Part shown: positions 559-24,956 of the stretch, piece by piece | Layout: the number at the start of each line of letters is the position of its first letter | Numbering within the stretch: position 1 is the first letter of the stretch | NCBI GenBank assembly: GCA_016788805.1 | Contig: JAEUSE010000001.1 | Span: forward strand, 1-25,095 | Reading direction: 5' to 3' | DNA: 25,095 bases | Source of the DNA: Candidatus Doudnabacteria bacterium | Lineage (GTDB): Bacteria; Patescibacteriota; Doudnabacteria; UBA920 | The notes under the pieces: generated by a model | What the model was told of the DNA's origin: nothing | What the model saw: only the letters and a program-made list of their open reading frames with translations | Databases searched by the model: none | Program-made: the position numbers and the translations under genes

Positions 559-1524
559 ATGGCTTATTCTAGCAATCCTAACTTACCAAAAGCGAGAGCA
601 ATTGCCATGCAATTGCTGGTGCGTGAGCAACTACCCGCAGGGGTAGTTGCGAATAAGTGTGGCGTGCATCGCAGTACGATCTACCGTTGGAAGCGGAAAT
701 GGGATGTCCTAAACCAAGATGTGCAAATGGACAACCCCAACCGGTCCAACCGAGTCTACAGCCGCACCAACCACCTGAGCCGCTGTACTTGGCGTATTCC
801 GACAGCTGCATCGCGTCCATACACTAGCCCCACTGCCATCAGCCCCGAGCTTGTGCGGCTCGTCCTTGCGGTTCGCGCACAGCTGAAACGTTGTGCTGAG
901 GTGGTCTGGCATCACCTCGCCACTGTCCTCGGTGTTTCAGTGTCACTGAGTAGTGTCCGACGCATTCTGTGGCGCTCGGACATTGCCCGTGGCCGAAAGA
1001 ACCGCATCCGCCGAGATAACCCCAGACGGCCAGCGGTGACTGCCCCTGGTGAACTGGTTCAAACCGACACCATCCACCATGTCGATCCGAAGACTGACAG
1101 GCGATTGTACTACTACACGGTCATTGATCTGTTCACCAGGATGACCTACGTCATTCTGGCGCCCAAGCTCCGGCAAGGCATTGCCGCACAGGCCATATTA
1201 GAAGCCCAGAGAGCATGGGGCTTCACAATCTCCATAGTGCAAGCAGACAATGGTCCCGAGTACGGACGCTACTTTGAACAGGTCATGAAGTAGCACGACA
1301 TACCAACCAGACACAGTAGGCTCCACCGCCCCAATGACAATGCCCACATTGAACGCTTTAACCGCACCATCCAAGAAGAATGCATTGGGCATTCCTGGGA
1401 CAGGAGCGTACCGCTCCCGTCCCAGCAAGCCAAGCTTTGCGCTTGGCTTGGGTACTACAACACACAAAGAGTACACTTAGGGATACATATGTTGACGCCT
1501 ATGCAGATGTTGCAAAGGTCTTGA
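559..1524 (+). pseudogene. IS481-family transposase with premature in-frame TAG at 1291-1293
   Basis: N-terminal HTH (AGVVANKCGVHRSTIYRWKRKW) and integrase core (PGELVQTDT, VQADNGPEY). After the TAG the same frame continues 76 codons (HDIPTRHSRLHRPNDNAHIERFNRTIQEEC...YYNTQRVHLG...MLQRS) to TGA at 1522-1524. This continuation contains the third DDE residue. Confidence 0.85.
1506..1524. repeat. Right terminal inverted repeat of the IS481-like element
   Basis: GATGTTGCAAAGGTCTTGA, an inverted copy of 475-493 that encodes the last transposase codons and the TGA stop. Confidence 0.75.
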
Positions 1525-10440: not shown

Positions 10441-12180
10441 CTATGGCACTGATACATCGAGCCAAACGAGTCCGCCCATATTCCACATAGTGGATCCTTC
10501 GAGTATCGGCTGAAAGAATTGCCGATACGTACCACTAGCTTGTGCTTGGGCAACGCTAAACGCGAAACTAAACTCTGCGATCTGACCGGGCAAAGCGACA
10601 TGTTGGTTCGCGGCAAGCGTAACACCGTCTGCTTCATAGACACGCGAGAAAGTGCCAGATGCACGGTTGTTGGTAGGCCAAGAAGCACTAAGTGGACTCG
10701 CATTGTTTATGGGATTAGCTGTGGCAAGATGAACGGGGTAAGTTTTGCTGATTAATGCGCTCGTATCATCATACCAGGGCAGAGTGCCACTATTTGAGAA
10801 TCGGAAGAATGAAGTAGTTGATTGCCCCTTTTGGACTATGGGGTAAATGCTTTGGCCAGCAAATGTAGCTGCGAAGGTTACAGGCTTTACTGTTATTGCA
10901 GTCCAGGCTACGCCGCCCATATTCCACATTGCGGAACCTTCCAGGACGGGTTGGAAGTACTCTCGATATGTACCGACGGGCGCGTTTGCAGTAAGAGTAA
11001 AATCGAATTGTACGATTTGCCCTGGTTGAGCAATGTGCTGATTTGGTGCCAATGTTACGCCATCGGCTTCATAGACATGCGCAAACGTACCTGTCGCACG
11101 ATTATTGGCCGGCCAGCCACTACTGAACTGACTGGCGGTGTTTATGGGCTGAGTTGTAGCCAAGTGAACAGGATATGTTTGGTACTGGGGGGCACTCACG
11201 TCGTCATACCAAGGAAGATTACCTGCATTTGAATAGCGCAATGACGATAGTGTTGAGCGTCCAGATACGATGGTCGGATATGCGCTCTGCCCGGCATATG
11301 TTGCTGCGAATTTGCGTGATGTTACACCGAACCAGTCGTTGAAATAAACCCAAAAATTACGGTTTCCATACGCGCTACATCCATCATCCTGGCCGCCATA
11401 GAGGTTGCTTAGCGCCATTGCGTTCGGTTGGTAAGGTGTGTAGTTATATAATGCGGCGGTACCCTGTGTTTCGATATACACAGGGCTACTACCACAGGAA
11501 GAGGGGACATCCCATTGGATATTACGCGTCACACCAGCTTTAAAGTTATAACTATCAGGGTAGGTAACATATCGACGCATTTGTTTAGCAGCGCTAGTTA
11601 CTTGATTGTAAAAGCCGTAATAGCTCGTATCGCAGTTAGCGGAACCGCCTACACCACTATCTGGGCAAGCATAACCCATCGCTCTATTATATTGCCAAGT
11701 TGCTGACCATGGGTCTGTGACGAGTGCTGTTTCTTTTTGTAGCATTACAAGTAACACTTGAGGGTTAATGCTATAAAGTTGCCCGGCATCCCAAATTATT
11801 TGTGCAGCACTTTTACCTCCATTTACCACCACGGGACTACCGTCAGCATTAAAACGCCCGATGTTATTTTCATGGGTAGTTGGGTTCTCGTTATATTCCT
11901 TCAGGCAAGTGTAGGGCGGTTGGTTATACACGCCACCCAACCAAAAAAATGCTTGATGGTTACGATCGCAGGTAGGTACTTTTGCATTCAAGAAATCTTG
12001 AATCTGCTGTGGCGTCATCGTGTCTTTATTGAAGAATATTGAATCGTCAATTATGTGGCCAGCTTTCCAGTCTGCCGCGGTGATTGCGCTAGCATTTGAC
12101 GGTAGGTACGACACCGCCAAAGCCAGGCAGAGAGAGCTGACTAGAGAGATGTAGACTACGGCCCGTCGCGTCTGTTTCAT
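10441..12180 (-). CDS. Secreted protein: signal peptide, lysozyme-like/'hemagglutinin'-type domain (aa ~33-285) and two tandem Ig-like repeats
   Basis: Signal peptide ending ASA. INPQVLLVMLQKE, AMGYACPD, ALYNYTPY and YGNRNFW motifs match a domain I recognise from actinobacterial and Saccharibacteria secreted proteins. The repeats are directly visible. Confidence 0.7.
   Translation of the reverse strand: MKQTRRAVVYISLVSSLCLALAVSYLPSNASAITAADWKAGHIIDDSIFFNKDTMTPQQIQDFLNAKVPTCDRNHQAFFWLGGVYNQPPYTCLKEYNENPTTHENNIGRFNADGSPVVVNGGKSAAQIIWDAGQLYSINPQVLLVMLQKETALVTDPWSATWQYNRAMGYACPDSGVGGSANCDTSYYGFYNQVTSAAKQMRRYVTYPDSYNFKAGVTRNIQWDVPSSCGSSPVYIETQGTAALYNYTPYQPNAMALSNLYGGQDDGCSAYGNRNFWVYFNDWFGVTSRKFAATYAGQSAYPTIVSGRSTLSSLRYSNAGNLPWYDDVSAPQYQTYPVHLATTQPINTASQFSSGWPANNRATGTFAHVYEADGVTLAPNQHIAQPGQIVQFDFTLTANAPVGTYREYFQPVLEGSAMWNMGGVAWTAITVKPVTFAATFAGQSIYPIVQKGQSTTSFFRFSNSGTLPWYDDTSALISKTYPVHLATANPINNASPLSASWPTNNRASGTFSRVYEADGVTLAANQHVALPGQIAEFSFAFSVAQAQASGTYRQFFQPILEGSTMWNMGGLVWLDVSVP
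10444..10875 (-). repeat. Intragenic ~145-aa repeat, copy 2 (aa 436-579)
   Basis: Same motif string as copy 1 with long identical blocks (YPVHLAT, VYEADGVTLA, MWNMGG). Confidence 0.9.
10882..11310 (-). repeat. Intragenic ~145-aa repeat, copy 1 (aa 291-433)
   Basis: FAATYAGQS-YP...PWYDD...TYPVHLAT..PIN...VYEADGVTLA.NQH...PGQI...GTYR..FQP.LEGS.MWNMGG is shared with copy 2. Confidence 0.9.
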
Positions 12181-12740
12181 TTACGGACCTCGACCTTTTG
12201 GCTATCAGAGCCAGTTGCCGTATCATTCTTTGCCGTCAGCATAATCGTGTAGTTTCCGGCAGGTATATCAGAAATAGGTATATCAAGGCTACAGCTATAG
12301 TACGTCTCAAGATTTTTAATACTGGAAGTGAAATCTTTGTTGTAGTTTGACCCGCTCAGGTTGATGGTACAGTTACCACTCTGAATGCTAACGATTGCAC
12401 GCACAACAATAGGACCGCCTGTTTCGTCTTGAGCCGCTGCTGAAAGGGACACCTGTGCCGTATTGCTAGTTGAGGATGAATCTTGGTTGTTCTGCTGCGC
12501 TTGATTCTTTATCTGATCAGCTAGCCCCGTCTCATTACTGCTGGGTGGATTGTAGTTAACGTCAGTATCACTTGTCGTTTTAGCCGGGCTAGCCGGAGCA
12601 GAAGGAGAAAGTGCTATAAAGTTAGTCACGTGCGTTTTTTCGAGTACTACAAGCAAAAGTCCGATTGTCAAGACGGCAGCAAGTGAGATTAAAACTACTT
12701 TACGTGTATTTCTTTTTTTGTGTGAGAGCTGTTTGACCAT
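12177..12740 (-). CDS. Single-pass membrane protein with Ser/Thr/Gln/Asn-rich linker and a small beta-rich (Ig-like) C-terminal domain
   Basis: Basic N-terminus (KKRNTRK), one TM helix, low-complexity linker and two Cys in the C-terminal domain. ATGA overlap with the downstream secreted protein. ATG 12740 follows an AAGGA Shine-Dalgarno; an alternative start is at 12761. Confidence 0.75.
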   Translation of the reverse strand: MVKQLSHKKRNTRKVVLISLAAVLTIGLLLVVLEKTHVTNFIALSPSAPASPAKTTSDTDVNYNPPSSNETGLADQIKNQAQQNNQDSSSTSNTAQVSLSAAAQDETGGPIVVRAIVSIQSGNCTINLSGSNYNKDFTSSIKNLETYYSCSLDIPISDIPAGNYTIMLTAKNDTATGSDSQKVEVRK

Positions 12741-12769
12741 GTTTGTTTCCTTGCAAGGCATGTAAGGTT

Positions 12770-12860: not shown

Positions 12861-14600
12861 TTATTTTGTCTGTGGGAATGGTTGTAGCCGCTCGCGAACA
12901 TCATAATCATATATCCAGATTTTTATGACATCACCAGTTCTAATACCGGCTGCCTCAGTGCGGCTCGCCGGCTCGCCATATATCTTCACCAAGTCTTGAT
13001 CAGAACAAGACCAGTAACCATAGTTTAAGCCGCCTCTGTCGATGATCAGCGCTGTTTTTATGCCCTTTTGAGGACGATACCAATCTTCTCGCGAATCAAA
13101 TGGCACTGGTTTATTACAGTTTATCTGAGGCGTGTAGCTAATACGATTACTTGACCAAAAGCGTATAGGTGGTCCATACCAAAAATCTGTAACAATTGTA
13201 TCAACTTTATTCGCAGTCAAATAACCAATAATCTGGTTAATCGATGTTTTTGAGGGAACCGGCTTTATTTGATTCTGTACTTTGTATGCAGAACTGACGG
13301 TAGGATAATAGGTGATGATGCCGACGACTAGAACTAAACAAAGCAGTGCCACATATCTCTGCTGACTATAATACTGTCTTAATGCCCATACGAAGCCGAC
13401 GATGGCAATAAGTGGTAATAGAGTCAGGTATCTAGTGTTCATGAAGTCAATAATCTGCCCATTTCCCATATCGGCGACCGCATACCCTGAGAGGACGTAT
13501 TCGGCCAGGATGACGAAATAGCTAACTGCCAACGTCGTAAGAATGAAATTATTTTCTTCAGTAATATTCTCCTTTGCTTTGTAGCGTCTATTCGTTCTAG
13601 CCAATATTAAGATGAGCCCAATGACACCTAGTACGAGAATCATGAGATTGATGAATGCCAACAAGCTGTTGACGCCTATCTGTAGGCCAAATATTGAACC
13701 GCCCTGTAGTTCCATCAATTGTCTGAAAGTTACTTGCATTGAAGGCCAAAAATGCTCGTAGGGGAGCACGGTAGGCTTATTAAGAAAGGCATAATCAAAG
13801 TAAATCGAATGGGAGTAGGCCAATATCCATTTGATGATTTTTGCACCAATTACGACGGTTAAGATTAACGCAACAACTCGTAACATGCCCAGTGTAAATT
13901 TATGACTCTGAAACCAATACCAAACAATCACGGCTAAGATTGGCACGAGTATCGAATATATAAAGAAACTATCGCCAGCCAGCAGAAGACAAAACAATAT
14001 ACTACCAACAAGACCCCAGTAGACTTTCCTGCGAGATATGCTTTCGCTCTTTAGCAAATCGCGGATAATAAAAATAAACCACAACGACAGCGGAAATCCG
14101 ATATTCCTAAACGTAGTATTACCTATGCCAATGTTAAACGTAACCGAGGCAAACATAAGAGAGGAAAGCAGTAATATTATTGGTATCTCGTATTCTCTTC
14201 CGAAAAGTTTTATTAACAAAAATGCCCACGCTAGAATGGTGGTAAGTACGAGAAAAATGTTTAGGAAAGTGAAGCTCTTGTAGCGATATGGAAGATGACC
14301 TTGAACGTACAATACGGGTATCATTAAAATATTTGCATGAGACCCGGGAAGTGCAACGGTGTTACCCTCTACACCATGGCTGAATTGATGGGTAGCGATA
14401 AGGGCATCTGAATTAGTAGAAAAATAGTTGCTTGTATTGAACGCTGCATACACCGTCGTTAACAATAAAACTATCACAGACAACGCGAGGGCGGTTTTGT
14501 ATAAAATAGAGTTACGATTGCTGAATAGTCGTGACGCTTGATTAAGAATGAGCGGTAAGTTACGGTACTGTCTTTTAAAGATTTGATGTAGTATATTCAT
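12861..14600 (-). CDS. Polytopic GT-C-type membrane glycosyltransferase, GtrC-like (copy 1)
   Basis: About 12 TM segments, acidic NSDA after the first helix, then LAGDSFFIYSILVP, NTRYL, TDFWYG and IYGEP. This motif order resembles phage P22-type GtrC as I recall it; no search was run. Confidence 0.6.
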   Translation of the reverse strand: MNILHQIFKRQYRNLPLILNQASRLFSNRNSILYKTALALSVIVLLLTTVYAAFNTSNYFSTNSDALIATHQFSHGVEGNTVALPGSHANILMIPVLYVQGHLPYRYKSFTFLNIFLVLTTILAWAFLLIKLFGREYEIPIILLLSSLMFASVTFNIGIGNTTFRNIGFPLSLWFIFIIRDLLKSESISRRKVYWGLVGSILFCLLLAGDSFFIYSILVPILAVIVWYWFQSHKFTLGMLRVVALILTVVIGAKIIKWILAYSHSIYFDYAFLNKPTVLPYEHFWPSMQVTFRQLMELQGGSIFGLQIGVNSLLAFINLMILVLGVIGLILILARTNRRYKAKENITEENNFILTTLAVSYFVILAEYVLSGYAVADMGNGQIIDFMNTRYLTLLPLIAIVGFVWALRQYYSQQRYVALLCLVLVVGIITYYPTVSSAYKVQNQIKPVPSKTSINQIIGYLTANKVDTIVTDFWYGPPIRFWSSNRISYTPQINCNKPVPFDSREDWYRPQKGIKTALIIDRGGLNYGYWSCSDQDLVKIYGEPASRTEAAGIRTGDVIKIWIYDYDVRERLQPFPQTK

Positions 14601-14610
14601 GTATTAGGTA

Positions 14611-14616
14611 ATTATA
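14611..14616 (-). promoter_or_regulatory. Putative -10 box (TATAAT), 10 nt before ATG 14600
   Basis: Minus strand TATAAT-tacctaatac-ATG. Confidence 0.45.
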
Positions 14617-14717
14617 TAGCAAATTAGGCAGGTCCAACACTAACCGTTTCTTGCTCGATAAGGTATGACTGTGATGGCATAGGCTTTTTGGACACGGAGA
14701 AATTGAACGATGACTTG

Positions 14718-16340
14718 TTAAAGAAATTTGCTGGAGATATCGTAGTCGAAAATCATAAATGTCTTACCGTTTACATCAATAGTGCGCTTCGGTTCTCCGA
14801 ATTGTTTGGTGATATCTTCTTGCGTACAAGTCTTTGGCCCAATTATGGAAGGGTCAATAAAGTAGAATGAGGCTTCGGACTGTTTTTCGAGACGACTACT
14901 TGTTGTGAGCCACTTGAAGCGCAAGGTCTGCCCACTTTCTGTGCATGCAACGGGGAGAAAAAGGATCTGTCCGCCAGACATGTAGGTATTAATATTTGCC
15001 TGCCAGAAATTTGCGTAGCCTTTTTTAAGACCCTGAGCTTGAGCGGCGGCTACGATGTCAATGTTCAGTGCATTGCTTCGATTGGAGACTGTGCTTGAGC
15101 CCTGATCAGCCGACACGGAATGGACTGTTTGCAAAAGGTTTGCAAGGGTTGCTGCTGTAAGTAATATAGTTAGTATTCGTGACAGATTTACATTTTTATA
15201 GCGCCCTATAGCTATCGCAAGCAAGACGATGCCCGCATAGACAAAGAGCATATAAAAACGATAATTGCTGATATCTGCGAGCGTGCTAAACGCGTTAGTT
15301 AAGAAAACACTTCCAAGTACGAATACAAAAAGCACTGACCAAAGTGCTTCGATACTTGTGCGTTTAATCTCAGCAGTTTGAAGGTATTTTTTGTATGAAA
15401 ATACCGAAATGAAGATAGTAACAAGTAGTATGGCGTTAATGAGCGGAACAATTGTGGAAGCTGCAACTGGTTTACCCAAGAAATCAGCGCCAAATATATG
15501 AAAAATTTCGTGAAACGAGGCAAGGATATTACTTATAATTGACTCGAAAGTAACAAAGACCGAGGGTGCATTTGTGTTTATAAAAATTCCGGCACTTGTG
15601 CCAAGTACAGAAAAAAGTTTGTTCATCACGTAACTCAGTCCTACTGCGAGATAGAGCAATGCCGCTGTATTATTATCGATTTTCTTAAAATATTGGAGCG
15701 AGATAAGTGCGATTAAGATAGGGGCAATCGTAAAGAAGGTAAAGTAGGGGTCGCTGTACATCATAGCGCCAGTCAAGAGTATAGCGACGGACAGACCTAC
15801 TCTTGAGCGCGTCGACTTGATGACTAGGTCTTTGTTGCATACGGCTGCAACTAAGGCAAATGCTGCGAATGATAACCCCATCTCAAAACTGCGCCAATTT
15901 GAGTTGAGGTACCACGATACGATTGGGTATCCAAAACTTGCAAGCCACAAGAAGGGTAAAAGTACCGTATAAGTTAAATTAATCTTGAGCTTTTTGAGGA
16001 AGTAGAGAGAAGAATAATAGAAAAGTGTAAAAGACCCTAAAACAAGTAGGAGTGACTCGAGGATTAGGAGCTTTCTGCTATAGGTAAAAATGCTCTCGAG
16101 AACTATAAAGAAAGGAGCAAGAATTACAAAAATGTCTTTGGCGCCAAAATAAAAAGTTTGCCCGCTAAACGGCTTCCAGTCCTTAACGGCTAATTGCCAA
16201 TACACGTCGTCGCTGTTGAATGGCCTATACTTTCCGATAAATACAATATTGAAAGTGAGGACGGCAATGCTTATGCAAAAAACAATGAACCAGGGGCTCT
16301 TAATAATTGCTAGCGATCGTTCTTTTACTTGTTTAGACAT
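14718..16340 (-). CDS. Polytopic GT-C-type membrane glycosyltransferase, GtrC-like (copy 2)
   Basis: FNSDD in the first external loop, then YSDPYFTFFTIAP, FGADFLGK, NYRFY, GYANFWQAN and QFGEP. Colinear with copy 1. Start is ATG 16340 or TTG 16361. Confidence 0.62.
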   Translation of the reverse strand: MSKQVKERSLAIIKSPWFIVFCISIAVLTFNIVFIGKYRPFNSDDVYWQLAVKDWKPFSGQTFYFGAKDIFVILAPFFIVLESIFTYSRKLLILESLLLVLGSFTLFYYSSLYFLKKLKINLTYTVLLPFLWLASFGYPIVSWYLNSNWRSFEMGLSFAAFALVAAVCNKDLVIKSTRSRVGLSVAILLTGAMMYSDPYFTFFTIAPILIALISLQYFKKIDNNTAALLYLAVGLSYVMNKLFSVLGTSAGIFINTNAPSVFVTFESIISNILASFHEIFHIFGADFLGKPVAASTIVPLINAILLVTIFISVFSYKKYLQTAEIKRTSIEALWSVLFVFVLGSVFLTNAFSTLADISNYRFYMLFVYAGIVLLAIAIGRYKNVNLSRILTILLTAATLANLLQTVHSVSADQGSSTVSNRSNALNIDIVAAAQAQGLKKGYANFWQANINTYMSGGQILFLPVACTESGQTLRFKWLTTSSRLEKQSEASFYFIDPSIIGPKTCTQEDITKQFGEPKRTIDVNGKTFMIFDYDISSKFL

Positions 16341-16370
16341 TCGTGACTCTACCGGTGCCAATTATCAGGC

Positions 16371-16378
16371 AGTATAAT
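16371..16378. promoter_or_regulatory. Overlapping divergent -10 boxes (AGTATAAT)
   Basis: TATAAT on plus (16373-16378) and TATACT on minus (16371-16376), between the divergent GT-C and HAD genes. Confidence 0.45.
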
Positions 16379-16502
16379 GGTAACATATATGCAGTGCACA
16401 GGAGTTAACCATCTGGTTGATTGCATTAGGCGTAAGCCTTGATTAAGTTAAAGATTAATCTCATGCAGAAATTGTTTAACGGAACACTACCAAAAGGTGA
16501 AA

Positions 16503-17063
16503 ATGATTAAGGGTTTTTTCTTTGATTTGGACGGCACTCTAGTAGATACCCATAGGGCTAACTTTGAGGCGTATCGGCAAGCCCTTGAGGATTTTGGTAT
16601 TGAGCTGACGTTTGACGAATTTAAAAAGAGTATTGGGCATCAGGCAAAAACCTTTTTACCTTGGTTTGCACCAAACCTAAGTAGTGATGAGCTAGATGAA
16701 ATTGCAGAGAAAAAGAAACGATACTATAAGGAATATGTACATCTATCGGTCCTGAATACGCAGCTAGTGGAGTTCTTAAAATACCTCAAGCCCCATCATG
16801 CCATAGTACTAGTAACCACGGCAAAGCGGGCAAATGCCGAGACAATGCTTGAACATCATGGGCTAATGGACATGTTTGACCAAATGATTACATTCGAGGA
16901 CGTCACAGACTCTAAACCATCCCCTGAAGCGTACCAGCTTGCATTGGAGCGTACGAAGTTACAGCCCAATGAAGTGATTGCTTTCGAGGACTCTTCAGCT
17001 GGCATCTCGGCTGCAATCGAAGCGGGTATAGCAGTCGTCGAGGTGAAGGATTTCAGGCCATGA
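16503..17063 (+). CDS. HAD-superfamily phosphatase, subfamily IA (beta-phosphoglucomutase-like)
   Basis: Motif I FDLDGTLVDT, motif II VTT, motif III KPSPEAY, motif IV FEDS. Start is ATG 16503 or GTG 16497. Confidence 0.88.
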   Translation: MIKGFFFDLDGTLVDTHRANFEAYRQALEDFGIELTFDEFKKSIGHQAKTFLPWFAPNLSSDELDEIAEKKKRYYKEYVHLSVLNTQLVEFLKYLKPHHAIVLVTTAKRANAETMLEHHGLMDMFDQMITFEDVTDSKPSPEAYQLALERTKLQPNEVIAFEDSSAGISAAIEAGIAVVEVKDFRP

Positions 17064-19180
17064 GTCTCAAAAAAGTACTGATTGTACCGGTCATTATATC
17101 TGCAATACTATTGGCTGTTTTTTCAAAAACCATTCTAGAAAGTCTTGAGGTGTTAACGAAAAACGTAACGATAACTCCATCATTTATTCTAGTGATTCTT
17201 GCCGTAATATGTCTTCAGTTCATCGGACATTGGTTGCGCGCATATAAAACACGCTATATTTTACGACCAGTCAGACATACCACCACCAAATTTCAGTTTC
17301 GAGCGCTTAGTCTGGGATATCTTTTTAATGCCATATTACCCCTTCGGTTAGGCGAGTTTGTCAGGTCCTACGTAATGGCTACGGCAGATAGGATAAGCTG
17401 GGGCTTAACTCTTGCCGTCGTCCTATTTGAGCGTAGCGTAGACGCACTTTTTCTTGGCAGCATAGCGTTAGTATTTGTTGTCTTAGCTTGGGTTGGCTTC
17501 GAGCACATTGCCATAGGACTTGTTGCGCTTTTAGCCTTTGGCTTTATTATTCTGGCGGGTGGTGCTGCACTCATAAATGAGGACAAGCGATTAATCCATG
17601 TAATCTATCGATTTTCATCAATGTTCAATACACACGTTAAGCAGGCAATCCGATTCAAAGCGTGGTCAATCATATACGGGCTGCAGCAGATTGCTGCAAA
17701 TCTCTCAATTGCAAAGTATCTCTCGCTGTCATTGGCAAGCTGGGTGTTTTATTTTGCATCTGCAGCTCTTCTCTTTACGCAGCTAAACATAACTACCAAT
17801 GGTGCGAAGGATGTAGTAATGCTCAGCGCAGCCCCGTACTATGGGGTCTCGTTGCCGTCTGGGCCGGGAAGCCTCGGTTCATACTCAAGCTCTGCCAATG
17901 ATATTAATGCACAGGTCGGCCTACGGGGTGACGAGCAGCTAATTTTTGACCTAACATCCTGGGCAGTTATAGTACTACCGGTTGCATTAGTTGGCGTTGC
18001 GCTTCTCTTGTCGAAGACAAAAGAACCCTTTGGTCGAAAATTAACGAAGAGCTCATCGCGTCATTCACTAATGGATAAATTGTCACGCGAAGAAGACATC
18101 AGTGATGAAATGGAACTATTCCTAGAAAACTATTTCTCGGGCAATGTTCTTTCTAAAATCGTACACCGCTTGGAGCGAAGCGGTGAGTTTAAGCTCCTTA
18201 AATACTTCAAGGGTGGCTCTGATGCAATCACCATTCTTGCGGCCGAAAAAGATGGAAGGGTTGTCGTTAAGAAAATTATAGCACTTGAATATAAAGACAG
18301 ACTAAAAGCTCAATATGACTGGCTAAACAGCCGCAAACATAAAAACATTGTCAAAGTACTTGGCGAGCAGACGGGGAGCGACTATTACGCAATCGATATT
18401 CACTATGATGAGCAGGATGATATGTTCTTCGATTTTCTTCATAGCCACCCTGTCGAAGATTCGGAAAAAGTACTGAGGACTGTTTGGGATTCTTTGCACG
18501 AAATACTATATAAAAAAACTGAGTACAGAACAGACTATAAAGCGCTTGATACCTATGTCGCCAAGCACATATGGGGCTGCCTTGAAAAGGCATCTGCGGT
18601 CAACACTGATCTAGCCACTGCAGCATCGTGTGACGCGTTAATTATTAATGGAAAACAGTATGACGGCATACACAAAATCATCGATAAAATTAACAAACAC
18701 GAACAAGCACGGATGGATCTTGCAACATATGCTCATGCCAAAGAAGTCGATGGCGACATTGCGCTAGACAACATTCTAGTTTCGAGGAAAAATCAGAAGC
18801 CTGTCATTATCGACCCAGCGCCAGATGGAAATATCATTAATGGACCGGTTTTTGATTTTGGCAAAAACATGCAATCTCTATACTGTGGTTACGAATTTTT
18901 GTTCAGGAGCAACGAAGTTGTTGCATTAGAAGGTGTGAATAAAATAAATTTTCAAGATAGGCGCACTGACCAGTATGTTCGTCTATGTGAGTATGTTCGC
19001 AACACTCTAGCTCCAAAGTATTTGTCTGAGGGCGAGCAAAAGGCGGTTATATTTCATGCTGCAACATTACACATCAGACGGCTGAAACACCAAGTGTATC
19101 AAAATCCATCAATTGCACTAGCTATGTATGCTGCAGGCGTTAAAGCTTTAAATGAATTCTACTGGCAGTATGTAAAATAA
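17060..19180 (+). CDS. Fusion of a UPF0104/LPG_synthase_TM (flippase-like) domain with an APH/choline-kinase-like phosphotransferase domain
   Basis: aa 1-320: about 8 TMs with GYLFNAILPLRLGEFVR, ERSVD and LPSGPGSLG. aa ~375-706: KGGS loop, VVKK, DGDIALDNIL, IIDP and DFGK kinase-like motifs. Confidence 0.72.
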   Translation: MSLKKVLIVPVIISAILLAVFSKTILESLEVLTKNVTITPSFILVILAVICLQFIGHWLRAYKTRYILRPVRHTTTKFQFRALSLGYLFNAILPLRLGEFVRSYVMATADRISWGLTLAVVLFERSVDALFLGSIALVFVVLAWVGFEHIAIGLVALLAFGFIILAGGAALINEDKRLIHVIYRFSSMFNTHVKQAIRFKAWSIIYGLQQIAANLSIAKYLSLSLASWVFYFASAALLFTQLNITTNGAKDVVMLSAAPYYGVSLPSGPGSLGSYSSSANDINAQVGLRGDEQLIFDLTSWAVIVLPVALVGVALLLSKTKEPFGRKLTKSSSRHSLMDKLSREEDISDEMELFLENYFSGNVLSKIVHRLERSGEFKLLKYFKGGSDAITILAAEKDGRVVVKKIIALEYKDRLKAQYDWLNSRKHKNIVKVLGEQTGSDYYAIDIHYDEQDDMFFDFLHSHPVEDSEKVLRTVWDSLHEILYKKTEYRTDYKALDTYVAKHIWGCLEKASAVNTDLATAASCDALIINGKQYDGIHKIIDKINKHEQARMDLATYAHAKEVDGDIALDNILVSRKNQKPVIIDPAPDGNIINGPVFDFGKNMQSLYCGYEFLFRSNEVVALEGVNKINFQDRRTDQYVRLCEYVRNTLAPKYLSEGEQKAVIFHAATLHIRRLKHQVYQNPSIALAMYAAGVKALNEFYWQYVK

Positions 19181-19184
19181 TGAG

Positions 19185-19670
19185 TTAAGTGATACGCGAT
19201 TTCTTAAAAACAAAGCGGTCATAAGTGAAATAATTGTAAATTAGAACAAATAGTACCATAAACCCAAATGCGCCCGTATTGGAAACGAAAGCGTAGCTAA
19301 AAGGCAAACCAATTGATTGTGAGGCATTAAATGCAAGCTGGTATATTCCATCAAAATGAATAAATATACTTAACAGCGTGGGCCTGATAATCCACATGCC
19401 GAAACCAGTAAAGACAAAAAACTTGAACATGGTTTTATGGCTCAAGCTGCTTCCGCGCCATGTAATGAGCCCGTGTGTTAGAAAAGCGCAAACCAAGGCA
19501 AATGTACCGGAGGCTATGCCCGCTAAGCCGATCTGACTCGGTTCAGTAAACAATAATTGTGTTAGGAATGTATAGAATAGAAAATCAACGGTAGTATTGA
19601 ATATACCAACCGCAAGAAAAACTACTGCTTTTTTATTGCCTTTTTTCTCGGCGTGGACAAGTTTATTCAT
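19185..19670 (-). CDS. gtrA: GtrA-family small flippase-like membrane protein
   Basis: 161 aa with four hydrophobic segments; FLAVGIFNTTVDF at the N-terminus and a YNY...RFVFK C-terminus typical of GtrA. Confidence 0.8.
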   Translation of the reverse strand: MNKLVHAEKKGNKKAVVFLAVGIFNTTVDFLFYTFLTQLLFTEPSQIGLAGIASGTFALVCAFLTHGLITWRGSSLSHKTMFKFFVFTGFGMWIIRPTLLSIFIHFDGIYQLAFNASQSIGLPFSYAFVSNTGAFGFMVLFVLIYNYFTYDRFVFKKSRIT

Positions 19671-20392
19671 TGTTTGCCTTCTAGATAGTCCTGTAATTCT
19701 TCAGGTGTGCCAAATATGTATTTTTTGTCTATATTTGCTATTTCTATGCGGCCATTTCTTTCGATTAATATGTTAAAAAGATGCGACATGTAGTACTCCT
19801 TTAGGTGAGCAGGCAATGGACTGAGCATAAAAGTTTCGGCTAAGTTCTTAAAAAGCCTTCCGGACGAGAAGTAGTATCCTCCAAGTATGGCGTTATTGGA
19901 TATGGCTATTTTTTCGGCTGTACGTATAACGTTGCCATTGCTGTCTTTTTCTGCATAGCTATAACGGGGGTCATTTGAATGGAAGGTGAGTAGCATGCCA
20001 TCAGGCTTATCTTTCGCTATTGCATTTCGAAAGTATTCCTTAGATTCGAAATAAATGTCGCAGTCGGCAATGCTTATTGCAGTATCATCATCGATGTATT
20101 CCTTGGCGGCAAGGCAGGATTCTACTGCGCCATGAGTATCATGATCCAGTATGCTAATTTTTGCTCCCGGAAGTTGAGCTAATATCTTGGCACTAAGTCC
20201 AAAAGCATCATCTTGGTCCTTTCGAATCACGAAGATATGTTGCACGTTATCTAGTTTACTGAAACTTTCTAGTGCTCGCATAAACATAGGTTTGCCGTCA
20301 ACTTCTATTAGGGGTTTTGGTGTAGTGTAGCCCGCTGCCGTAAAACGACTGCCGAGACCGCCCATGGGCATGAGGACTTGCAGATCTGACAT
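19667..20392 (-). CDS. Sugar/polyol-phosphate nucleotidyltransferase (NTP_transferase family)
   Basis: LMPMGGLGSRF..GY..PKPLIEVDGKPM N-terminal signature, T.GAVES, DCD and FGTPEEL. ATG 20392 overlaps the upstream TAA by one base. Confidence 0.8.
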   Translation of the reverse strand: MSDLQVLMPMGGLGSRFTAAGYTTPKPLIEVDGKPMFMRALESFSKLDNVQHIFVIRKDQDDAFGLSAKILAQLPGAKISILDHDTHGAVESCLAAKEYIDDDTAISIADCDIYFESKEYFRNAIAKDKPDGMLLTFHSNDPRYSYAEKDSNGNVIRTAEKIAISNNAILGGYYFSSGRLFKNLAETFMLSPLPAHLKEYYMSHLFNILIERNGRIEIANIDKKYIFGTPEELQDYLEGKQ

Positions 20393-21168
20393 TACGAGAT
20401 CTCCTTGCACGCATAATCTTCTGTTGATCTAGCCTGTGGATATTTTAAGAGTCCAAGCCTCCATCGCAGCAAATTTACTCCCGCTATTTTAGCGATATTA
20501 AAATTACGTGCGTTCGAGACTTGGTCTTCTTCGCGCCATGTGATTGGGACATAAGCAAATCTGATTTTTCGTTTTATTAAGTCAAGTAAAAGCTCAAAAT
20601 TGAAGGTTAGTTTATCTGCAAATTCGAGGTAGGTTCTTTGCTCCAAATCTTTTAATGCAAAGACATTCAGTCCAGATCCAAGGTCGGTACATTTGCGGCC
20701 CGTGAAGACTGTATAAGCTATATTCAAAAGGCGATTTCCCCATATACGCTTCCAGTCATAGCCTTGCAGATGCGAGCCTTTACTGAAGCGGGAGCCGAGC
20801 ACTGTTTGAGTTTCTGGATGGGCAAGGGCGTAGTCCAGTAGCAAGTTCGCCTCGTCGCTCTTAGCTTGATTATCGCCATGAAGTATAACTACGTGTGTGC
20901 AGCCCATAGCTTGGCCTTTTAGAAAGGCGACTTTGTGCGTTCCTCCCAGACTATAGTTTTTAACGTTTTGATATACATGAAGGTTTTTTAAGCGACCGGA
21001 TTTTTTATACTCTAACGCTGCGTGTACGGTGTTATCGGGGCTGCCATTATCAATAACGGCAATCTCCTCTACCCGATGGGCTAGCGTATCGTCAATCTCA
21101 TCGAGCGTTCGTATGATTTGCTTCTCGCACCTATATGCGGGGATAGCCAAAAGTACTTTCTGTTTCAT
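20392..21168 (-). CDS. Glycosyltransferase family 2, DPM1/GtrB-like polyprenol-phosphate glycosyltransferase
   Basis: IPAY, VIDNGSPD, N.SLGGTHK, HGDNQ (DxD-position variant), VLGSRF, GNRLLN, CTDLGSG and FELL...YVPI motifs. No C-terminal TM helices. Confidence 0.82.
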   Translation of the reverse strand: MKQKVLLAIPAYRCEKQIIRTLDEIDDTLAHRVEEIAVIDNGSPDNTVHAALEYKKSGRLKNLHVYQNVKNYSLGGTHKVAFLKGQAMGCTHVVILHGDNQAKSDEANLLLDYALAHPETQTVLGSRFSKGSHLQGYDWKRIWGNRLLNIAYTVFTGRKCTDLGSGLNVFALKDLEQRTYLEFADKLTFNFELLLDLIKRKIRFAYVPITWREEDQVSNARNFNIAKIAGVNLLRWRLGLLKYPQARSTEDYACKEIS

Positions 21169-21191: not shown

Positions 21192-21908
21192 TTACTTCAG
21201 TTTATCCAACAGCCACACACGAGGCCCGGGCGGTATTAAGCGCAAAATTGCACCAGCAAACGGGGATGGCTGTCGGGGTGTTTTAGTGCCTTGATCAATA
21301 ACATAATCAACTAAATTTGGCGGTAAGTTCTGTTCGCCAAGCCAACCTTTAGCTGGCCACTCTATTAGTCTTGCGAACTCGGCCAATGCTTCTTCGCGGT
21401 CGGAAGGATTTTTCGGGTCGAAAGGGTAGTCTGTCGGTTTAACATGGACAGTTTGTTCGGCGCCATTTATTTTACGCCCTTCGTGCTGCAGCGTCTCGGA
21501 AAGCCGTCGCGCCGAAGGGGCATGCGCTACGGTTGTCAGACTCGTTGTGGTCACGCCAGCTTCCGTAAGCATCGCAAGCGAAAACCGTGCGTTCTCCCCG
21601 CCGTTTGTAGCTCGCGGTTCGAGCAACACCGTAGGTGTTGTGTAATTGCGGTTGTGTGCATCTTTCTCAAGCTGCACATGTAAATAGTGCGCTTCAGACG
21701 TGAATCCTTGCTTTATTATATCGCCTGAGTCTTTCCCTACGCCCCCGGTAATTACAGCTGTTGTAACAAGACTAGGGATTATTAAGTCTCCCAAGGCGTG
21801 TGCAACAAGCGGATCTGCGCGTCCAAACACGACTGCTGCTTCTGGCTGGCTTGGCAACGAGGGGGCACTTAGAAAGTCATACAGCTCTAAAATTTCAGGG
21901 TTGGCCAT
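21192..21908 (-). CDS. YdcF/DUF218 (SanA/ElyC-like) family protein
   Basis: VVFG, VITGGVG, SEA..L and LLEPRATNGGENARFS motifs. Start moved to 21908 (MANPEILE) because ATG 21914 lies only 1 nt from the -10 box. Confidence 0.75.
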   Translation of the reverse strand: MANPEILELYDFLSAPSLPSQPEAAVVFGRADPLVAHALGDLIIPSLVTTAVITGGVGKDSGDIIKQGFTSEAHYLHVQLEKDAHNRNYTTPTVLLEPRATNGGENARFSLAMLTEAGVTTTSLTTVAHAPSARRLSETLQHEGRKINGAEQTVHVKPTDYPFDPKNPSDREEALAEFARLIEWPAKGWLGEQNLPPNLVDYVIDQGTKTPRQPSPFAGAILRLIPPGPRVWLLDKLK

Positions 21909-21915
21909 AATCATT

Positions 21916-21996: not shown

Positions 21997-23070
21997 ATGA
22001 AAATACTCATTGTCGCAGGGGGGCAGGGGACGAAGATGTGGCCATACAGTCGCACTGACAAACCCAAACAATTTCAAAAAATCGTCGGTGAAGAAACTCC
22101 GTACGAAAATAACATTAACACGTTGCTTAAAGAGTTCCCAGCGGAAGACATCTTTGTCTCAACAAAGCGGAAGTTTATCAAATACGTATCGGAACAATCT
22201 CCGCAAATCCCGCTTAAAAACTACATTATAGAGCCAGATATTGCCAAAGATCGTGGTCCGGGTGAGGGTCTGGCATTCCTGCGGTTGAGCATGGTGTGTC
22301 CAGGCGAACCGTTTTTCATGGTGCAGTCCGACTGCTACCGCGAGCCAGCCGAAGAGTTTCTAAAGATGATCCGTCAGGCCGAAAAGTTGGTTAAAAAGCA
22401 CAAGAAGCTGATAACAGGGGGTATAAAAGCAACCGAACCAAGCATCGGAGTCGATTATTTGCAGCTAGGTCAGAACCTCGATGACGACGCTTATGCAATC
22501 GACAAGTTTGTCTTCCGCAAAGACACCATGAAAGAAACGCGTGAGCTTATACAGAGCTTTCATGTCGTGACGCACTGCAACCACATGTGCTGGTACCCAG
22601 AGCTGGCGCTTGAGGCGTATAAGAAATATCGTCCAGATTGGTACGAGAAGCTTATGGCTATTAAAGAAGCTATAGATAACCCTGGCGAGCACGAAGCAGT
22701 AGAGCGTCTATATAGCGAAATGGAAAAAGGCGCTACCGAAGAGGTAACGACCAACGTTATGGATAAAGGTGAAGCTATAGTTATCCTGTTGCCTTTTAAG
22801 TGGACCGATCTTGGCACCTGGAGCTCGGTGTACGATTATTTTTCAACGACGCCAGAGAACTACGAAGATGGCAATGTCGTGTCGGTAGATACGACTGGCT
22901 CACTGATTAAATCCAGCCACAAAGATAAACTGATTGCGGTTGCTGGCGTTGAAGATATGGTAATCGTCGATACTGACGATGTACTGCTAGTCATACCAAA
23001 AGAAAAAATAGACAAGATAAAAAATATTCAGGCCGTTCTGACTGAACGAGAATCAACCGAATATCTCTAA
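21997..23070 (+). CDS. manC: Mannose-1-phosphate guanylyltransferase (monofunctional, no cupin isomerase domain)
   Basis: AGGQGTKMWPYSRTDKPKQF (GGxGxRLWPxSRxxxPKQF variant), IIEP, WTDLGTW and a C-terminal IAVAGVEDMVIVDTDDVLLV segment. Confidence 0.88.
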   Translation: MKILIVAGGQGTKMWPYSRTDKPKQFQKIVGEETPYENNINTLLKEFPAEDIFVSTKRKFIKYVSEQSPQIPLKNYIIEPDIAKDRGPGEGLAFLRLSMVCPGEPFFMVQSDCYREPAEEFLKMIRQAEKLVKKHKKLITGGIKATEPSIGVDYLQLGQNLDDDAYAIDKFVFRKDTMKETRELIQSFHVVTHCNHMCWYPELALEAYKKYRPDWYEKLMAIKEAIDNPGEHEAVERLYSEMEKGATEEVTTNVMDKGEAIVILLPFKWTDLGTWSSVYDYFSTTPENYEDGNVVSVDTTGSLIKSSHKDKLIAVAGVEDMVIVDTDDVLLVIPKEKIDKIKNIQAVLTERESTEYL

Positions 23071-23086
23071 ACGAAAGGATGCATGT

Positions 23087-23866
23087 ATGGCGAAAAAAGT
23101 AATAGCGTTTGATCTTGATGGCACCCTTGCGCCAAGTAAATCTACCCTCCCCGATCGCATGGCGGAAGCCCTGGGCGGTTTGCTTGGTTACTTCCATGTT
23201 TGCGTTATTTCGGGTGGTAAATTTGACCAGTTCAAGCTGCAGCTCATAGATAATCTACACGTTAGCCCAGACAAGCTTGAGAAGCTCCATATAATGCCAA
23301 CTTGCGGTACCAGGTATTACACATATGATGTCGCCAAAGACGATTGGGAGCAGGTGTACGCCGAAGATTTTGGAGAGGACGATAAGCAGCGCATCACCGC
23401 AGCGATTGAAGAGGCGATCGATTACTTCGGCTACCGCCCTAAAAAGCTTTATGGCGAAATGATCGAAGACCGTGGAAGCCAGGTGACGTATTCCGCTCTG
23501 GGCCAAGACGTCGTAGCAGAACTAGGCGATGAAGGTGTGGAGCTTAAAGAAGCATGGGATCCAGATTCGACGAAGAAGCTGAAACTACAGAAGTATTTGG
23601 CGGAGAGGCTTCCTGATTTTGAAGTTCGTGCGGGAGGCGCAACCTCCATAGACGTGACCAAGCCGGGCATAGATAAAGCATACGGCATGGAAAAACTCAT
23701 GGAAATGCTGCAAATAAGCAAAGATGACATCTTATTCCTCGGTGATAAACTGCAAGAAGGAGGCAATGACTACCCAGTAAAAGCTATGGGTATCGACAGT
23801 CTTGAAGTTTCCCGCTGGGAAGACACCTCACTGGTGTTAGAAGGCATCTTGCACATCACTAAGTAG
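23087..23866 (+). CDS. HAD subfamily IIB enzyme resembling eukaryotic-type phosphomannomutase (PMM2/Sec53-like)
   Basis: FDLDGTL, ISGG, IEDRGSQVTYSALG, GGATSIDV, GIDKAY and FLGDKLQEGGNDY parallel the PMM motifs FDVDGTL, IEFRNGMLNVSPIG, GGQISFDV, GWDK and FFGDKT..GGND. It follows manC with an AAGGA Shine-Dalgarno. Confidence 0.78.
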   Translation: MAKKVIAFDLDGTLAPSKSTLPDRMAEALGGLLGYFHVCVISGGKFDQFKLQLIDNLHVSPDKLEKLHIMPTCGTRYYTYDVAKDDWEQVYAEDFGEDDKQRITAAIEEAIDYFGYRPKKLYGEMIEDRGSQVTYSALGQDVVAELGDEGVELKEAWDPDSTKKLKLQKYLAERLPDFEVRAGGATSIDVTKPGIDKAYGMEKLMEMLQISKDDILFLGDKLQEGGNDYPVKAMGIDSLEVSRWEDTSLVLEGILHITK

Positions 23867-23870
23867 ACCC

Positions 23871-24956
23871 ATGAAAGTTTTATACGTCACTCGCAAGTTT
23901 CCGCCTACCGTTGGTGGGATGGAAACTGCTGCTTACGAAATGCATGCCGCCCTGAAGAGTATGGCAGATACCCGACTTATCAAATATGGCGGTGCCAATA
24001 AGTATTTGCCTCTTGTGTACCCTATATTATTCCTGCGAGCGTTGTTTGCCGGCTGGATATTTCGTCCAGATGTGATCTATCTACAAGATGGCATGCTTGC
24101 CCCGATGGGGATTGCGCTGCGAGCGCTGGTGCGTCGGCCATGCGTCATGTCAGTGCATGGGCTGGATGTGACATTTCGTAATCCGACCTACCAGAAAGTG
24201 ATGAAGTTTTGCTTCCCCAAGATAGACTGCATCGTAGCAGGGAGTATGCAGACCGAAAAAGAAGTCAGACTGCGCTATCCCGATCTTGAGCCGCACCGCG
24301 TCGTATATGGCGTACGCGACTCATTTTATAAGAACGAGGACAGGGATGTATTGCGCAGCAACCTTTGCAAAGAGCTTGCTTTGTCAGAGGCTGTGATCGT
24401 GGATAAAAAACTTATAGTAACCACAGGTCGCTTGGTAAAACGAAAAGGCGTGAACTGGTTTGTCCGAGAAGCCGTGCCCATGTTAGCGGCCAATCAAGAG
24501 GATTTCGTATACATGGTCGCTGGCAATGGTCCGGACAAAGAACATATACAGGATGCTATCGACCAAAATAATTTACACAGTAAAGTGCTGCTTCTGGGGT
24601 ATATATCTGACACTGCGCGCGATTTGCTTTACAATACTGCAAATATCTTTCTCATGCCAAACATCGCCGTACCGGGTGACATGGAAGGCTTTGGGCTGGT
24701 TGCCTTAGAGGCAGCTTCGTGCGGGACGCCAGTATTTGCCGCAGGCATAGAGGGTATCGTCGATGCGGTAGCGGACGGCAAAACAGGCAGGCTTCTACAA
24801 AGTGAAAAACCGGAAGCTTTTATCGCGGCAATCACTAGTGAATTACACAAATCGGCTTTCGATCGGGAAAAAGTACGACAGTATGTGCTCGATAATTTTT
24901 CATGGGAGCGCACGGCGACGGGCTACCTGAAGATTTTCGAATCACTTTGCAAGTAA
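23871..24956 (+). CDS. Glycosyltransferase family 4
   Basis: FPPTVGGME, TGRLVKRKG and MEGFGLVALEAASCG (EX7E) motifs. Confidence 0.88.
   Translation: MKVLYVTRKFPPTVGGMETAAYEMHAALKSMADTRLIKYGGANKYLPLVYPILFLRALFAGWIFRPDVIYLQDGMLAPMGIALRALVRRPCVMSVHGLDVTFRNPTYQKVMKFCFPKIDCIVAGSMQTEKEVRLRYPDLEPHRVVYGVRDSFYKNEDRDVLRSNLCKELALSEAVIVDKKLIVTTGRLVKRKGVNWFVREAVPMLAANQEDFVYMVAGNGPDKEHIQDAIDQNNLHSKVLLLGYISDTARDLLYNTANIFLMPNIAVPGDMEGFGLVALEAASCGTPVFAAGIEGIVDAVADGKTGRLLQSEKPEAFIAAITSELHKSAFDREKVRQYVLDNFSWERTATGYLKIFESLCK

Follow-up and report, generated by a model that had tools for sequence, protein, structure and literature searches.

Positions 12861-21168 of contig JAEUSE010000001.1 (Candidatus Doudnabacteria, assembly GCA_016788805.1) encode seven proteins that are reasonably likely to form a three-component (lipid-carrier) extracytoplasmic glycosylation system with a private supply of its nucleoside diphosphate (NDP)-sugar, decorating either the mannan made by the adjacent locus or surface proteins encoded with it. 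The window, i.e., the whole stretch of DNA that was analyzed, is the entire 25-kb contig (25,095 nucleotides) of a 1.25 Mb genome that is 89% complete; the closest relatives of the proteins encoded in the window come from uncultured Candidatus Saccharibacteria. All seven open reading frames (ORFs) are present, each uninterrupted. The features of this region, denoted here the cassette, are as follows.

12861-14600, minus strand: GTC1, a 579-aa polytopic membrane protein with about 9 transmembrane (TM) segments and a C-terminal extracytoplasmic domain; candidate glycosyltransferase (GT) of the GT-C type
14718-16361, minus strand: GTC2, a 547-aa polytopic membrane protein; candidate GT-C transferase
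16362-16496: divergent spacer of 135 nt between the GTC operon and the HAD/fusion operon
16497-17063, plus strand: capped HAD-IA hydrolase (HAD_2), beta-phosphoglucomutase (beta-PGM)/sugar-phosphatase-like
17060-19180, plus strand: fusion gene (706 aa) combining a PplT/UPF0104 domain with a kinase domain
17060-18034, plus strand: N-terminal PplT/UPF0104 (MprF-flippase-like) membrane domain of the fusion
18140-19180, plus strand: C-terminal eukaryotic-like/APH-fold small-molecule kinase domain of the fusion
19185-19670, minus strand: GtrA-family 4-TM protein (PF04138); flippase or escort, or membrane partner of GT2
19667-20410, minus strand: short sugar-1-phosphate nucleotidyltransferase (NTPt) without an LbH tail; candidate NDP-sugar pyrophosphorylase
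20392-21168, minus strand: TM-less GT2 of the DPM1/Ppm type; predicted polyprenyl-phosphate sugar synthase

Gene organization

The initial annotation, made from the sequence alone, described these genes as three tightly packed units, and this arrangement is confirmed: the HAD and fusion genes share 4 nt, as do the NTPt and GtrA genes, and a gap of 4 nt separates the end of the fusion gene from the convergent GtrA stop. The overlap of the GT2 and NTPt genes is 19 nt as called and shrinks to ~1 nt with the orthologue-supported ATG at 20392. An alignment suggests ATG 16503 as the HAD start, and ATG 16340 is the probable start of GTC2 according to its Atlas record. A -10 site shared by the two divergent units had also been claimed. 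The hexamer TATAAT is indeed found at 16373-16378, inside the divergent spacer, but in a promoter/terminator scan promoter-like sites across the region are no more common than expected by chance (22, compared with 21.2 in shuffled sequences). The spacer matches no Rfam family, and a repeat scan gave no relevant result.

The family assignments hold at the Pfam level for the HAD, UPF0104, GtrA, NTPt and GT2 components, whereas those of the kinase and the GT-C candidates, for which no sequence match was obtained, come from predicted structures and motifs.

Conservation of the cassette across phyla

A scan for the fusion protein with one genome per species (185,579 species) produced 17 loci, 16 of them with flanking sequence, among which are 13 loci from Patescibacteria and three from Leifsonia (L014-L016). 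The HAD gene is located directly upstream of the fusion gene in all 16 flanked loci, with the NTPt gene a few kb away in each of them, and GT2 is present in 15 of the 15 loci where its position is covered; the four genes lie within ~6 kb. The carriers are Saccharibacteria, one metagenome-assembled genome of Roizmanbacteria, and three genomes of Leifsonia (Actinomycetota, 67% GC), namely Leifsonia sp. TF02-11, L. shinshuensis DP-L11 and Leifsonia sp. McL0607, where the cassette has the native G+C content (67%). In Leifsonia, genes for an ABC transporter and for a polytopic protein of 552 aa precede GtrA, HAD, fusion, GT2 and NTPt, encoded in this order, the last four forming a single co-directional run.

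When the kinase domain was used as the query of an exhaustive profile search, 284 clusters were retrieved at E<=1e-30 and 604 at 1e-10, with homologues that are either fused (~700 or ~640 aa) or stand-alone (~330-375 aa); the search gave 1272 homologues of this domain. A distant metagenomic clade with a 645-aa fusion has the order polytopic-GtrA-GT2-NTPt-fusion-HAD on one strand with an adjoining ABC transporter, and after a stand-alone homologue of the kinase come the genes for GT2, NTPt and a 13-TM protein. Furthermore, parts of the cassette are joined in three fusions, namely the HAD with the PplT-kinase protein (P0062), HAD_2 with NTPt (cyanophage S-8S56), and a polytopic protein with GtrA (locus L009). 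Given that synteny is retained across phyla, the grouping is not due to chance. The neighborhood comparison, which had been proposed together with the initial annotation, thus finds the core genes together in all related loci and in a distant clade.

Enzymes of donor synthesis

The HAD protein matches HAD_2 in Pfam (2e-34), and none of the four HAD motifs varies among 16 orthologues. Its closest affinity is with the beta-PGM/YqaB subfamily, yet it scores below every equivalog cut-off, with 93.7 bits for TIGR01990 (beta-phosphoglucomutase; cut-off 189.4) and 46.4 bits for the MupP model (cut-off 359), so that its assignment as either equivalog was rejected.

The NTPt protein matches NTP_transferase (5e-9) and also NTP_transf_3. 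Its profile is most similar to that of an uncharacterized NDP-sugar pyrophosphorylase of V. cholerae (4evw, 3e-31), with weaker matches to HddC, GlmU, GMPPB and RmlA; none of LicC, IspD and TarI was matched at E 0.001, and MurU models are absent among its NCBIfam matches. The other NTP_transferases of this genome are GalU, a GlmU/MurU-like enzyme (contig C155) and ManC, which makes the cassette NTPt the fourth; one phosphohexomutase and a phosphomannomutase are encoded as well. With GalU, the GlmU/MurU-like enzyme, ManC and the phosphohexomutase already in place, the cassette NTPt appears to be an extra, dedicated enzyme. Together with the co-occurrence of the core genes and the sugar-kinase-like fold of the kinase domain, this agrees with the original proposal that the cassette makes its own NDP-activated substituent. 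Equally in line with that proposal, which held the donor to be beyond identification from the sequence, efforts to name the sugar failed: 4evw is uncharacterized and the literature on it is irrelevant to the sugar, and a search for NTPt homologues returned only orthologues with generic names.

A fusion relevant to both proteins is found in Synechococcus phage S-8S56 (OQ504984.1, L026:3341-4726), where a 461-aa protein consists of a HAD_2 part, 27% identical to the cassette HAD, and a part of the cassette NTPt family, 35% identical to the cassette NTPt. The gene belongs to a phage glycan cluster with GT11, a sulfotransferase and a second HAD, and the NTPt family occurs in nineteen Synechococcus phage records. 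Because no kinase is encoded near this fusion, a mutase role of the HAD is still conceivable. In another variant (L004:12840-13805, plus strand), genes for an inositol-monophosphatase-family protein and a DUF218 protein are inserted between the fusion gene and NTPt, the former being a candidate for a further sugar-phosphate phosphatase.

The same matches bear on the nature of the transferred group. A kinase and a nucleotidyltransferase could form a LicA/LicC-like pair making a CDP-aminoalcohol or CDP-polyol for phosphodiester decoration with, e.g., phosphocholine, ethanolamine or glycerol, but the NTPt profile resembles sugar-1-phosphate enzymes, GT2 is of the DPMS type, which uses NDP-sugars, the best matches of the kinase are sugar kinases, and no LicD, CDP-alcohol transferase or LTA-synthase-type enzyme appeared in Pfam scans of the window ORFs. 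A non-sugar substituent is accordingly very improbable. Phosphocholine decoration by a LicA/LicC/LicD system, in particular, was rejected given that no LicD family member is among the Pfam matches of the window ORFs and the NTPt profile has no LicC match at E 0.001.

The PplT-kinase fusion and the translocation step

The N-terminal part of the fusion protein matches LPG_synthase_TM (PF03706, 5e-21, above the gathering score) and has the MprF-like 8-TM fold; the top Swiss-Prot structural matches of this membrane domain are archaeal UPF0104 proteins and AglD. The C-terminal 345 residues adopt a protein-kinase-like/APH fold in the predicted structure, and no match to DUF2156, the aminoacyl-phosphatidylglycerol synthase domain of MprF, was detected in the protein, so that the fusion is not MprF proper. 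The structural neighbors of the kinase domain, identified in a wide VIA search, are maltokinase, GlcN kinase and MTR kinase, and a Foldseek search with the full-length model of the fusion yielded generic protein kinases only, with weak scores. The strand 3 lysine (K405), the catalytic loop H-G-D566...N571 and the metal-binding D585 are invariant in 30-32 homologues. The kinase domain has no Pfam or NCBIfam match, and no PDB sequence match was obtained with either the single sequence or a 32-row profile. PF01636 is not matched by the fusion protein of the window and is matched by the Leifsonia orthologue with 24.8 bits (cut-off 23.2).

Two database records touch on this protein. In P0062 (JGI metagenome, 897 aa), the HAD, the PplT domain and the kinase form one polypeptide. 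P0015 (NCBI, 534 aa) is listed as 95% identical over 64% of the fusion, yet it contains Pfam domains PF20274 and PF00072 (response-regulator type), which are out of place here; the record may be mis-assigned or the gene call chimeric.

To our knowledge, flippases for polyprenyl- and dolichyl-phosphate monosaccharides have not been established, GtrA and the Dol-P-Man flippase being proposed only. GtrA is referred to as a proposed flippase in the literature (PMC11127046). The UPF0104 domain of the fusion, of the AglD/MprF type, is a better flippase candidate than GtrA, and a PplT domain that is wired into a polyprenyl-phosphate-sugar cassette offers a concrete candidate for this function. Fusions of PplT domains with kinases or HADs have been listed previously without interpretation (preprint 10.1101/2022.03.11.483950).

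The physical link between the kinase and a membrane domain also raises the question of what the kinase phosphorylates. Conceivably, the carrier is loaded with a phosphosugar and the HAD strips the terminal phosphate before the flip, or the kinase phosphorylates the lipid-linked sugar and a phosphosugar reaches the outside. In favor of such functions, the kinase of the cassette is invariably joined to a lipid-translocator domain, as is the HAD in P0062. In polyprenyl-phosphoribose synthases, dephosphorylation of this kind is performed by the PRP domain, and HAD phosphatase activity on polyprenyl-P-ribose-5-P has been documented (PMC11127046). On the other side, stand-alone soluble homologues of the kinase accompany the same GT2 and NTPt, the fusion with a soluble NTPt in the cyanophage ties the HAD to soluble steps, and the nearest folds of the kinase act on free sugars. 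On balance, action of either enzyme on a lipid-linked substrate seems to us rather unlikely, and we prefer a soluble sugar or sugar phosphate as the substrate.

GT2 and GtrA

The GT2 protein (258 aa; Glycos_transf_2, 9e-12) has the fold of polyprenyl-phosphate sugar synthases, with all top structural matches being DPMS/Ppm/AglJ-like. It contains no hydrophobic segments and its structure model ends after the catalytic domain; the C-terminal TM helices of GtrB/CsbB-type enzymes are lacking, as in the DPM1/Ppm type.

The small membrane protein matches GtrA_DPMS_TM (PF04138, 8e-8) with 32.9 bits (cut-off 26.1), and at least 14 of the 16 related loci encode a GtrA protein, which belongs to either of two subtypes. 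PF04138 includes the membrane domain of DPMS as well, so that GtrA possibly serves the TM-less GT2 as its partner in the membrane, by analogy with type III DPMS, in which case flipping would be left to PplT. In locus L009 (13897-16122, minus strand), a 741-aa protein combines a polytopic part (~590 aa, family P2) with a C-terminal GtrA domain, which argues that GtrA works with the outside transferase.

The type of GT2 is also relevant to the possibility that the product is a membrane glycolipid, with GT2 glycosylating a glycerolipid, PplT flipping the product, a role that has been proposed in GpgSDF, HexSDF and MprF, and the polytopic proteins being unrelated neighbors. Indeed, the experimentally studied PplT systems all concern glycerolipid head groups. 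The transferases of the known PplT operons are, however, GT4 (GpgS) or MGDG-synthase-like (HexS) enzymes, both with GT-B folds, in contrast to the DPMS/Ppm/AglJ-like GT2 of the cassette. Moreover, the frequency of GtrA, the presence of a large polytopic protein in each of 15 flanked loci, and the position of these loci inside polysaccharide clusters all speak against a glycolipid product, which we consider quite improbable. Under the lipid-carrier reading, which we favor, the polytopic proteins would be the transferases.

Candidate extracytoplasmic transferases

Neither GTC1 nor GTC2 has a match in Pfam, NCBIfam or the PDB sequences. The Atlas predicted structure of GTC1 resembles PMT_2/GT39 clusters (TM scores 0.65-0.69) and a Saccharimonadota GT-C protein fused to PIG-L (0.82), and that of GTC2 resembles PMT_2-type clusters (0.74). 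GTC1 and GTC2 are paralogues (21% identity), and GTC2 is 41% identical to its orthologue in locus L001. A motif located directly past TM1, N49-S50-D51 in GTC2 numbering, is invariant in these three sequences, and the basic N-termini of GTC1 and GTC2 imply that this acidic motif faces the outside.

At least one polytopic protein of 450-640 aa is encoded in all 15 flanked loci, the commonest family being similar to YfhO in predicted structure (TM score 0.62). Profile-profile comparison of the polytopic families gave probabilities of 45%, 0.2% and 0.2% with tiny alignments, and profile searches of the PDB with the families of polytopic neighbors returned nothing useful.

In one protein family of Saccharimonadota (875 aa, an Atlas cluster), the GTC1/GTC2 fold is joined to a PIG-L (GlcNAc-deacetylase-type) domain, a fusion that hints that some relatives handle N-acetylated amino sugars.

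Surrounding genes and the acceptor

The cassette lies in a glycan locus with the following neighbors.

559-1293, plus strand: transposase/integrase ORF (insertion sequence integrase fragment, helix-turn-helix and partial rve, 244 aa) at the contig start
2609-10397: ABC-transporter-dependent glycan line (Pfam: epimerase/dehydratase, GT4, Wzm, Wzt with Wzt_C, FkbM methyltransferase, double GT4)
10441-12761, minus strand: sec194 and sec579, downstream of and co-directional with GTC1; candidates for the acceptor or a partner
21192-21914, minus strand: DUF218 protein (PF02698, 1e-4, below the cut-off)
21997-24956, plus strand: ManC, HAD-type phosphomannomutase and GT4 (Pfam); GDP-mannose supply for the backbone

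In other loci, wzm/wzt, rmlABCD and GT2/GT4 polymerases adjoin the cassette. The DUF218 gene, separated by 23 nt from the downstream, co-directional GT2 gene, is probably the first gene of the GT2 operon, with an accessory role; its homologues adjoin the cassette in related loci L004, L007 and L012.

The protein sec194 consists of a TM membrane anchor, an S/T/N-rich linker and a small Cys-containing beta domain, and S/T/P-rich linkers are found in most of its orthologues. The secreted protein sec579 has a signal peptide, a lysozyme-like N domain and two Ig-like repeats, which are visible in the DNA as direct repeats of 62 nt (at 10472 and at 10913). Orthologues of sec579 flank the cassette in 12 of the 13 patescibacterial loci. 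Relatives without the cassette possess only a paralogue of the sec579 N domain (31-39% identity), and a paralogue of this domain is also encoded in the same genome, on contig C251.

This arrangement raises the possibility that the acceptor is a protein rather than a polysaccharide: with the same donor and lipid-carrier chemistry, GTC1 and GTC2 would act in the manner of PMT/GT39 on sec194, with its S/T-rich linker, and on sec579. PMT-like enzymes glycosylate such surface proteins in Actinobacteria, and the GTC models match PMT_2/GT39-type clusters. The sec genes follow GTC1 immediately on the same strand and pair with the cassette in 12 of the 13 patescibacterial loci, relatives that lack the cassette also lack a sec579 orthologue, and the linkers of sec194 orthologues are mostly rich in S, T and P. 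Nevertheless, sec579 and sec194 are missing next to the Leifsonia copies and in the distant clade, each locus also includes an ABC-transporter glycan line that is an equally good acceptor, S and T are just modestly enriched (0.28-0.48 over the best window of 50 aa), and PMT_2-like folds include ArnT-type lipid/glycan transferases. This reading, which differs from the preferred one in the acceptor only, is the strongest of the alternatives, but a system confined to protein acceptors is unlikely in our opinion.

An accessory and rare cassette

The kinase domain was detected in only 1 of 400 other sampled genomes of Patescibacteria, and it was not found in the one sampled genome of the same genus, in 13 sampled genomes of the same family, or in any of 200 other sampled genomes of Microbacteriaceae, the family of Leifsonia. 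The G+C content of the window is ~52% at the contig start, ~40-45% over the glycan locus and the cassette, and 47-49% at the end. In view of the rarity of the cassette, the low-G+C stretch and the integrase fragment at the contig start, the cassette behaves as an accessory component, probably a transferable one, of a variable locus for surface glycans. Cultivated Saccharibacteria have Actinomycetota as their hosts and Leifsonia belongs to that phylum, so that transfer between the epibionts and the lineage of their hosts is conceivable.

Proposed mechanism

The gene content, linkage, folds, catalytic motifs and fusions being established, we infer from them the activities, the kind of sugar and nucleotide, the flipping and the acceptor in the following scheme. 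Synthesis of the donor, its loading and its translocation would start in the cytoplasm at the membrane. The kinase, the HAD and NTPt would make a dedicated NDP-sugar from a sugar or a sugar phosphate with no need for a classical phosphomutase, and three orders of reactions are conceivable: sugar-omega-P to the 1,omega-bisphosphate, to the 1-P and to the NDP-sugar, as with phage AfhE/AfhF; sugar-6-P to the free sugar and to sugar-1-P, as with MupP/AmgK/MurU; or the free sugar to the 6-P and to the 1-P, with the HAD as a mutase. The TM-less GT2 would then move the sugar onto polyprenyl phosphate, the PplT/UPF0104 domain, with or instead of GtrA, would shift the polyprenyl-P-sugar to the outer leaflet, and GTC1 and GTC2 would transfer the sugar outside, either to two positions of the Wzm/Wzt-exported mannan or to a second acceptor. 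The general lipid-carrier scheme, with a DPMS-type GT2, a translocator and GT-C-like transferases, has been reviewed (PMC8035078) and shown for pentofuranoses (PMC11127046). Compared with the initial annotation, in which GT2 loads the carrier, GtrA flips it and the GT-C proteins perform the transfer, the first step is strengthened by the GT2 fold, the second is better ascribed to PplT, and the third is suggested by predicted structures alone.

Several points weigh against this scheme. The kinase domain and the GT-C candidates are devoid of sequence-level links to characterized proteins, and GTC1 and GTC2 are candidate GT-C transferases by virtue of predicted-structure matches from one source. 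The polytopic partners across the loci belong to at least four families without mutual BLAST similarity. PplT and GtrA are redundant as flippases under this model, and the tethering of a kinase with a soluble substrate to a flippase is left unexplained by it. The characterized PplT domains move glycerophospholipid derivatives rather than polyprenyl-P-sugars. With a score below the cut-offs of all equivalogs, the HAD may be either a phosphatase or a mutase. Finally, the sugar and the nucleotide are not readable from the sequence, and all the activities in the scheme are inferred.

We put forward, with low confidence, a more specific version of the lipid-carrier scheme, in which PplT/UPF0104 is a true polyprenyl-phosphate-monosaccharide flippase that forms one membrane assembly with an Afh-like mutase-independent route yielding an NDP-furanose or another rare NDP-sugar so far undescribed in the synthesis of cellular glycans, the kinase tether coupling synthesis to export. 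As the substrate of such a route we could suggest, just as tentatively, a common sugar phosphate without a mutase, e.g., fructose-6-P or ribose-5-P.

The set of kinase, HAD and NTPt possibly represents a pathway to a novel nucleotide sugar, or else a novel route without a mutase to one that is already known. Saccharibacteria live attached to Actinobacteria, and the glycans on their surface probably play a part in contact with the host and in recognition by phages. The presence of the cassette in named Leifsonia strains, which are expected to be cultivable, would provide a model for a gene set that is otherwise found mainly in uncultured bacteria.

Comparison with known systems

The cassette shares a GT2, a small GtrA protein and, as far as predicted structures suggest, a polytopic GT-C-like protein with the GtrA/GtrB/Gtr* systems of Shigella and Salmonella, with CsbB/GtcA/YfhO, and with GacI/J/K/L of streptococcal rhamnose polysaccharides and, like these three-component systems, is located beside a backbone glycan exported by an ABC transporter. 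The Gtr, CsbB and Gac systems draw on housekeeping UDP-Glc or UDP-GlcNAc, whereas the cassette brings its own kinase, HAD and NTPt. It further differs from the Gtr systems in that its GT2 is without GtrB-type TM helices, there is an additional PplT domain, and its GT-C candidates are without a match in the curated families.

Among the systems with MprF-like membrane domains, MprF, GpgSDF and HexSDF have a glycerolipid cargo and aminoacyl or GT4/MGDG-synthase-like partners, in contrast to the kinase and DPMS-type GT2 of the cassette; PplT flippases are found in glycolipid operons (PMC12713373).

With respect to donor synthesis, the closest analogies are with two routes. The phage Afh pathway for UDP-D-arabinofuranose (HY126; RB69 gp51, gp52:53, gp55; PMC13326640) likewise comprises an APH/GlcN-kinase-like anomeric kinase, a HAD phosphatase and a short NTPt, and has no mutase. 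The Afh phage kinase is fused to NTPt and that of the cassette to a flippase domain, and the phage product goes to DNA. In hhalign comparisons, the cassette kinase aligned with RB69 gp52 with a probability of 40%, and NTPt with gp53 with a probability of 1%; the cassette kinase and gp52 share the H-G-D...N and I-D-P motifs. Pfam scans detected no SIS/arabinose-5-P isomerase gene in the window or in the related loci. Membership in the Afh pathway was rejected given the lack of the isomerase, the unrelated NTPt and the weak link between the kinases. MupP/AmgK/MurU of Pseudomonas, a HAD, a kinase and a short NTPt that produce UDP-MurNAc, resembles the cassette in the combination of a HAD-IA phosphatase, an APH-fold anomeric kinase and a short uridylyltransferase, but it feeds peptidoglycan and is accompanied by no GT2, GtrA or GT-C protein. 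Identity with MupP/MurU was rejected as well, based on the HAD score given above and the lack of a MurU model match for NTPt. By analogy, the cassette appears to work like both routes and is a member of neither.

The claim of an undescribed pathway calls for a qualification. A full-text literature search found no paper describing the cassette, and it is not mentioned in a transposon sequencing (Tn-seq) study of Saccharibacteria. On the other hand, an archaeal neighborhood of UPF0104, an AglD-like GT2 and a PMT/STT3-like protein has been predicted to be a glycosylation module (Makarova et al. 2015, PMC5898192). The cassette resembles this archaeal set in combining a DPMS-like GT2 with a UPF0104/PplT domain and a candidate GT-C-like enzyme. 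In AglD, GT2 is fused to UPF0104, whereas in the cassette the two are encoded by different genes on opposite strands, with the kinase as the fusion partner of UPF0104; the archaeal set is without donor-making enzymes, and the flippase role in it is itself a prediction. Thus, the trio of GT2, UPF0104 and a PMT/STT3-like transferase was predicted before, and what is new in the cassette is its donor-making part and the kinase-flippase fusion.

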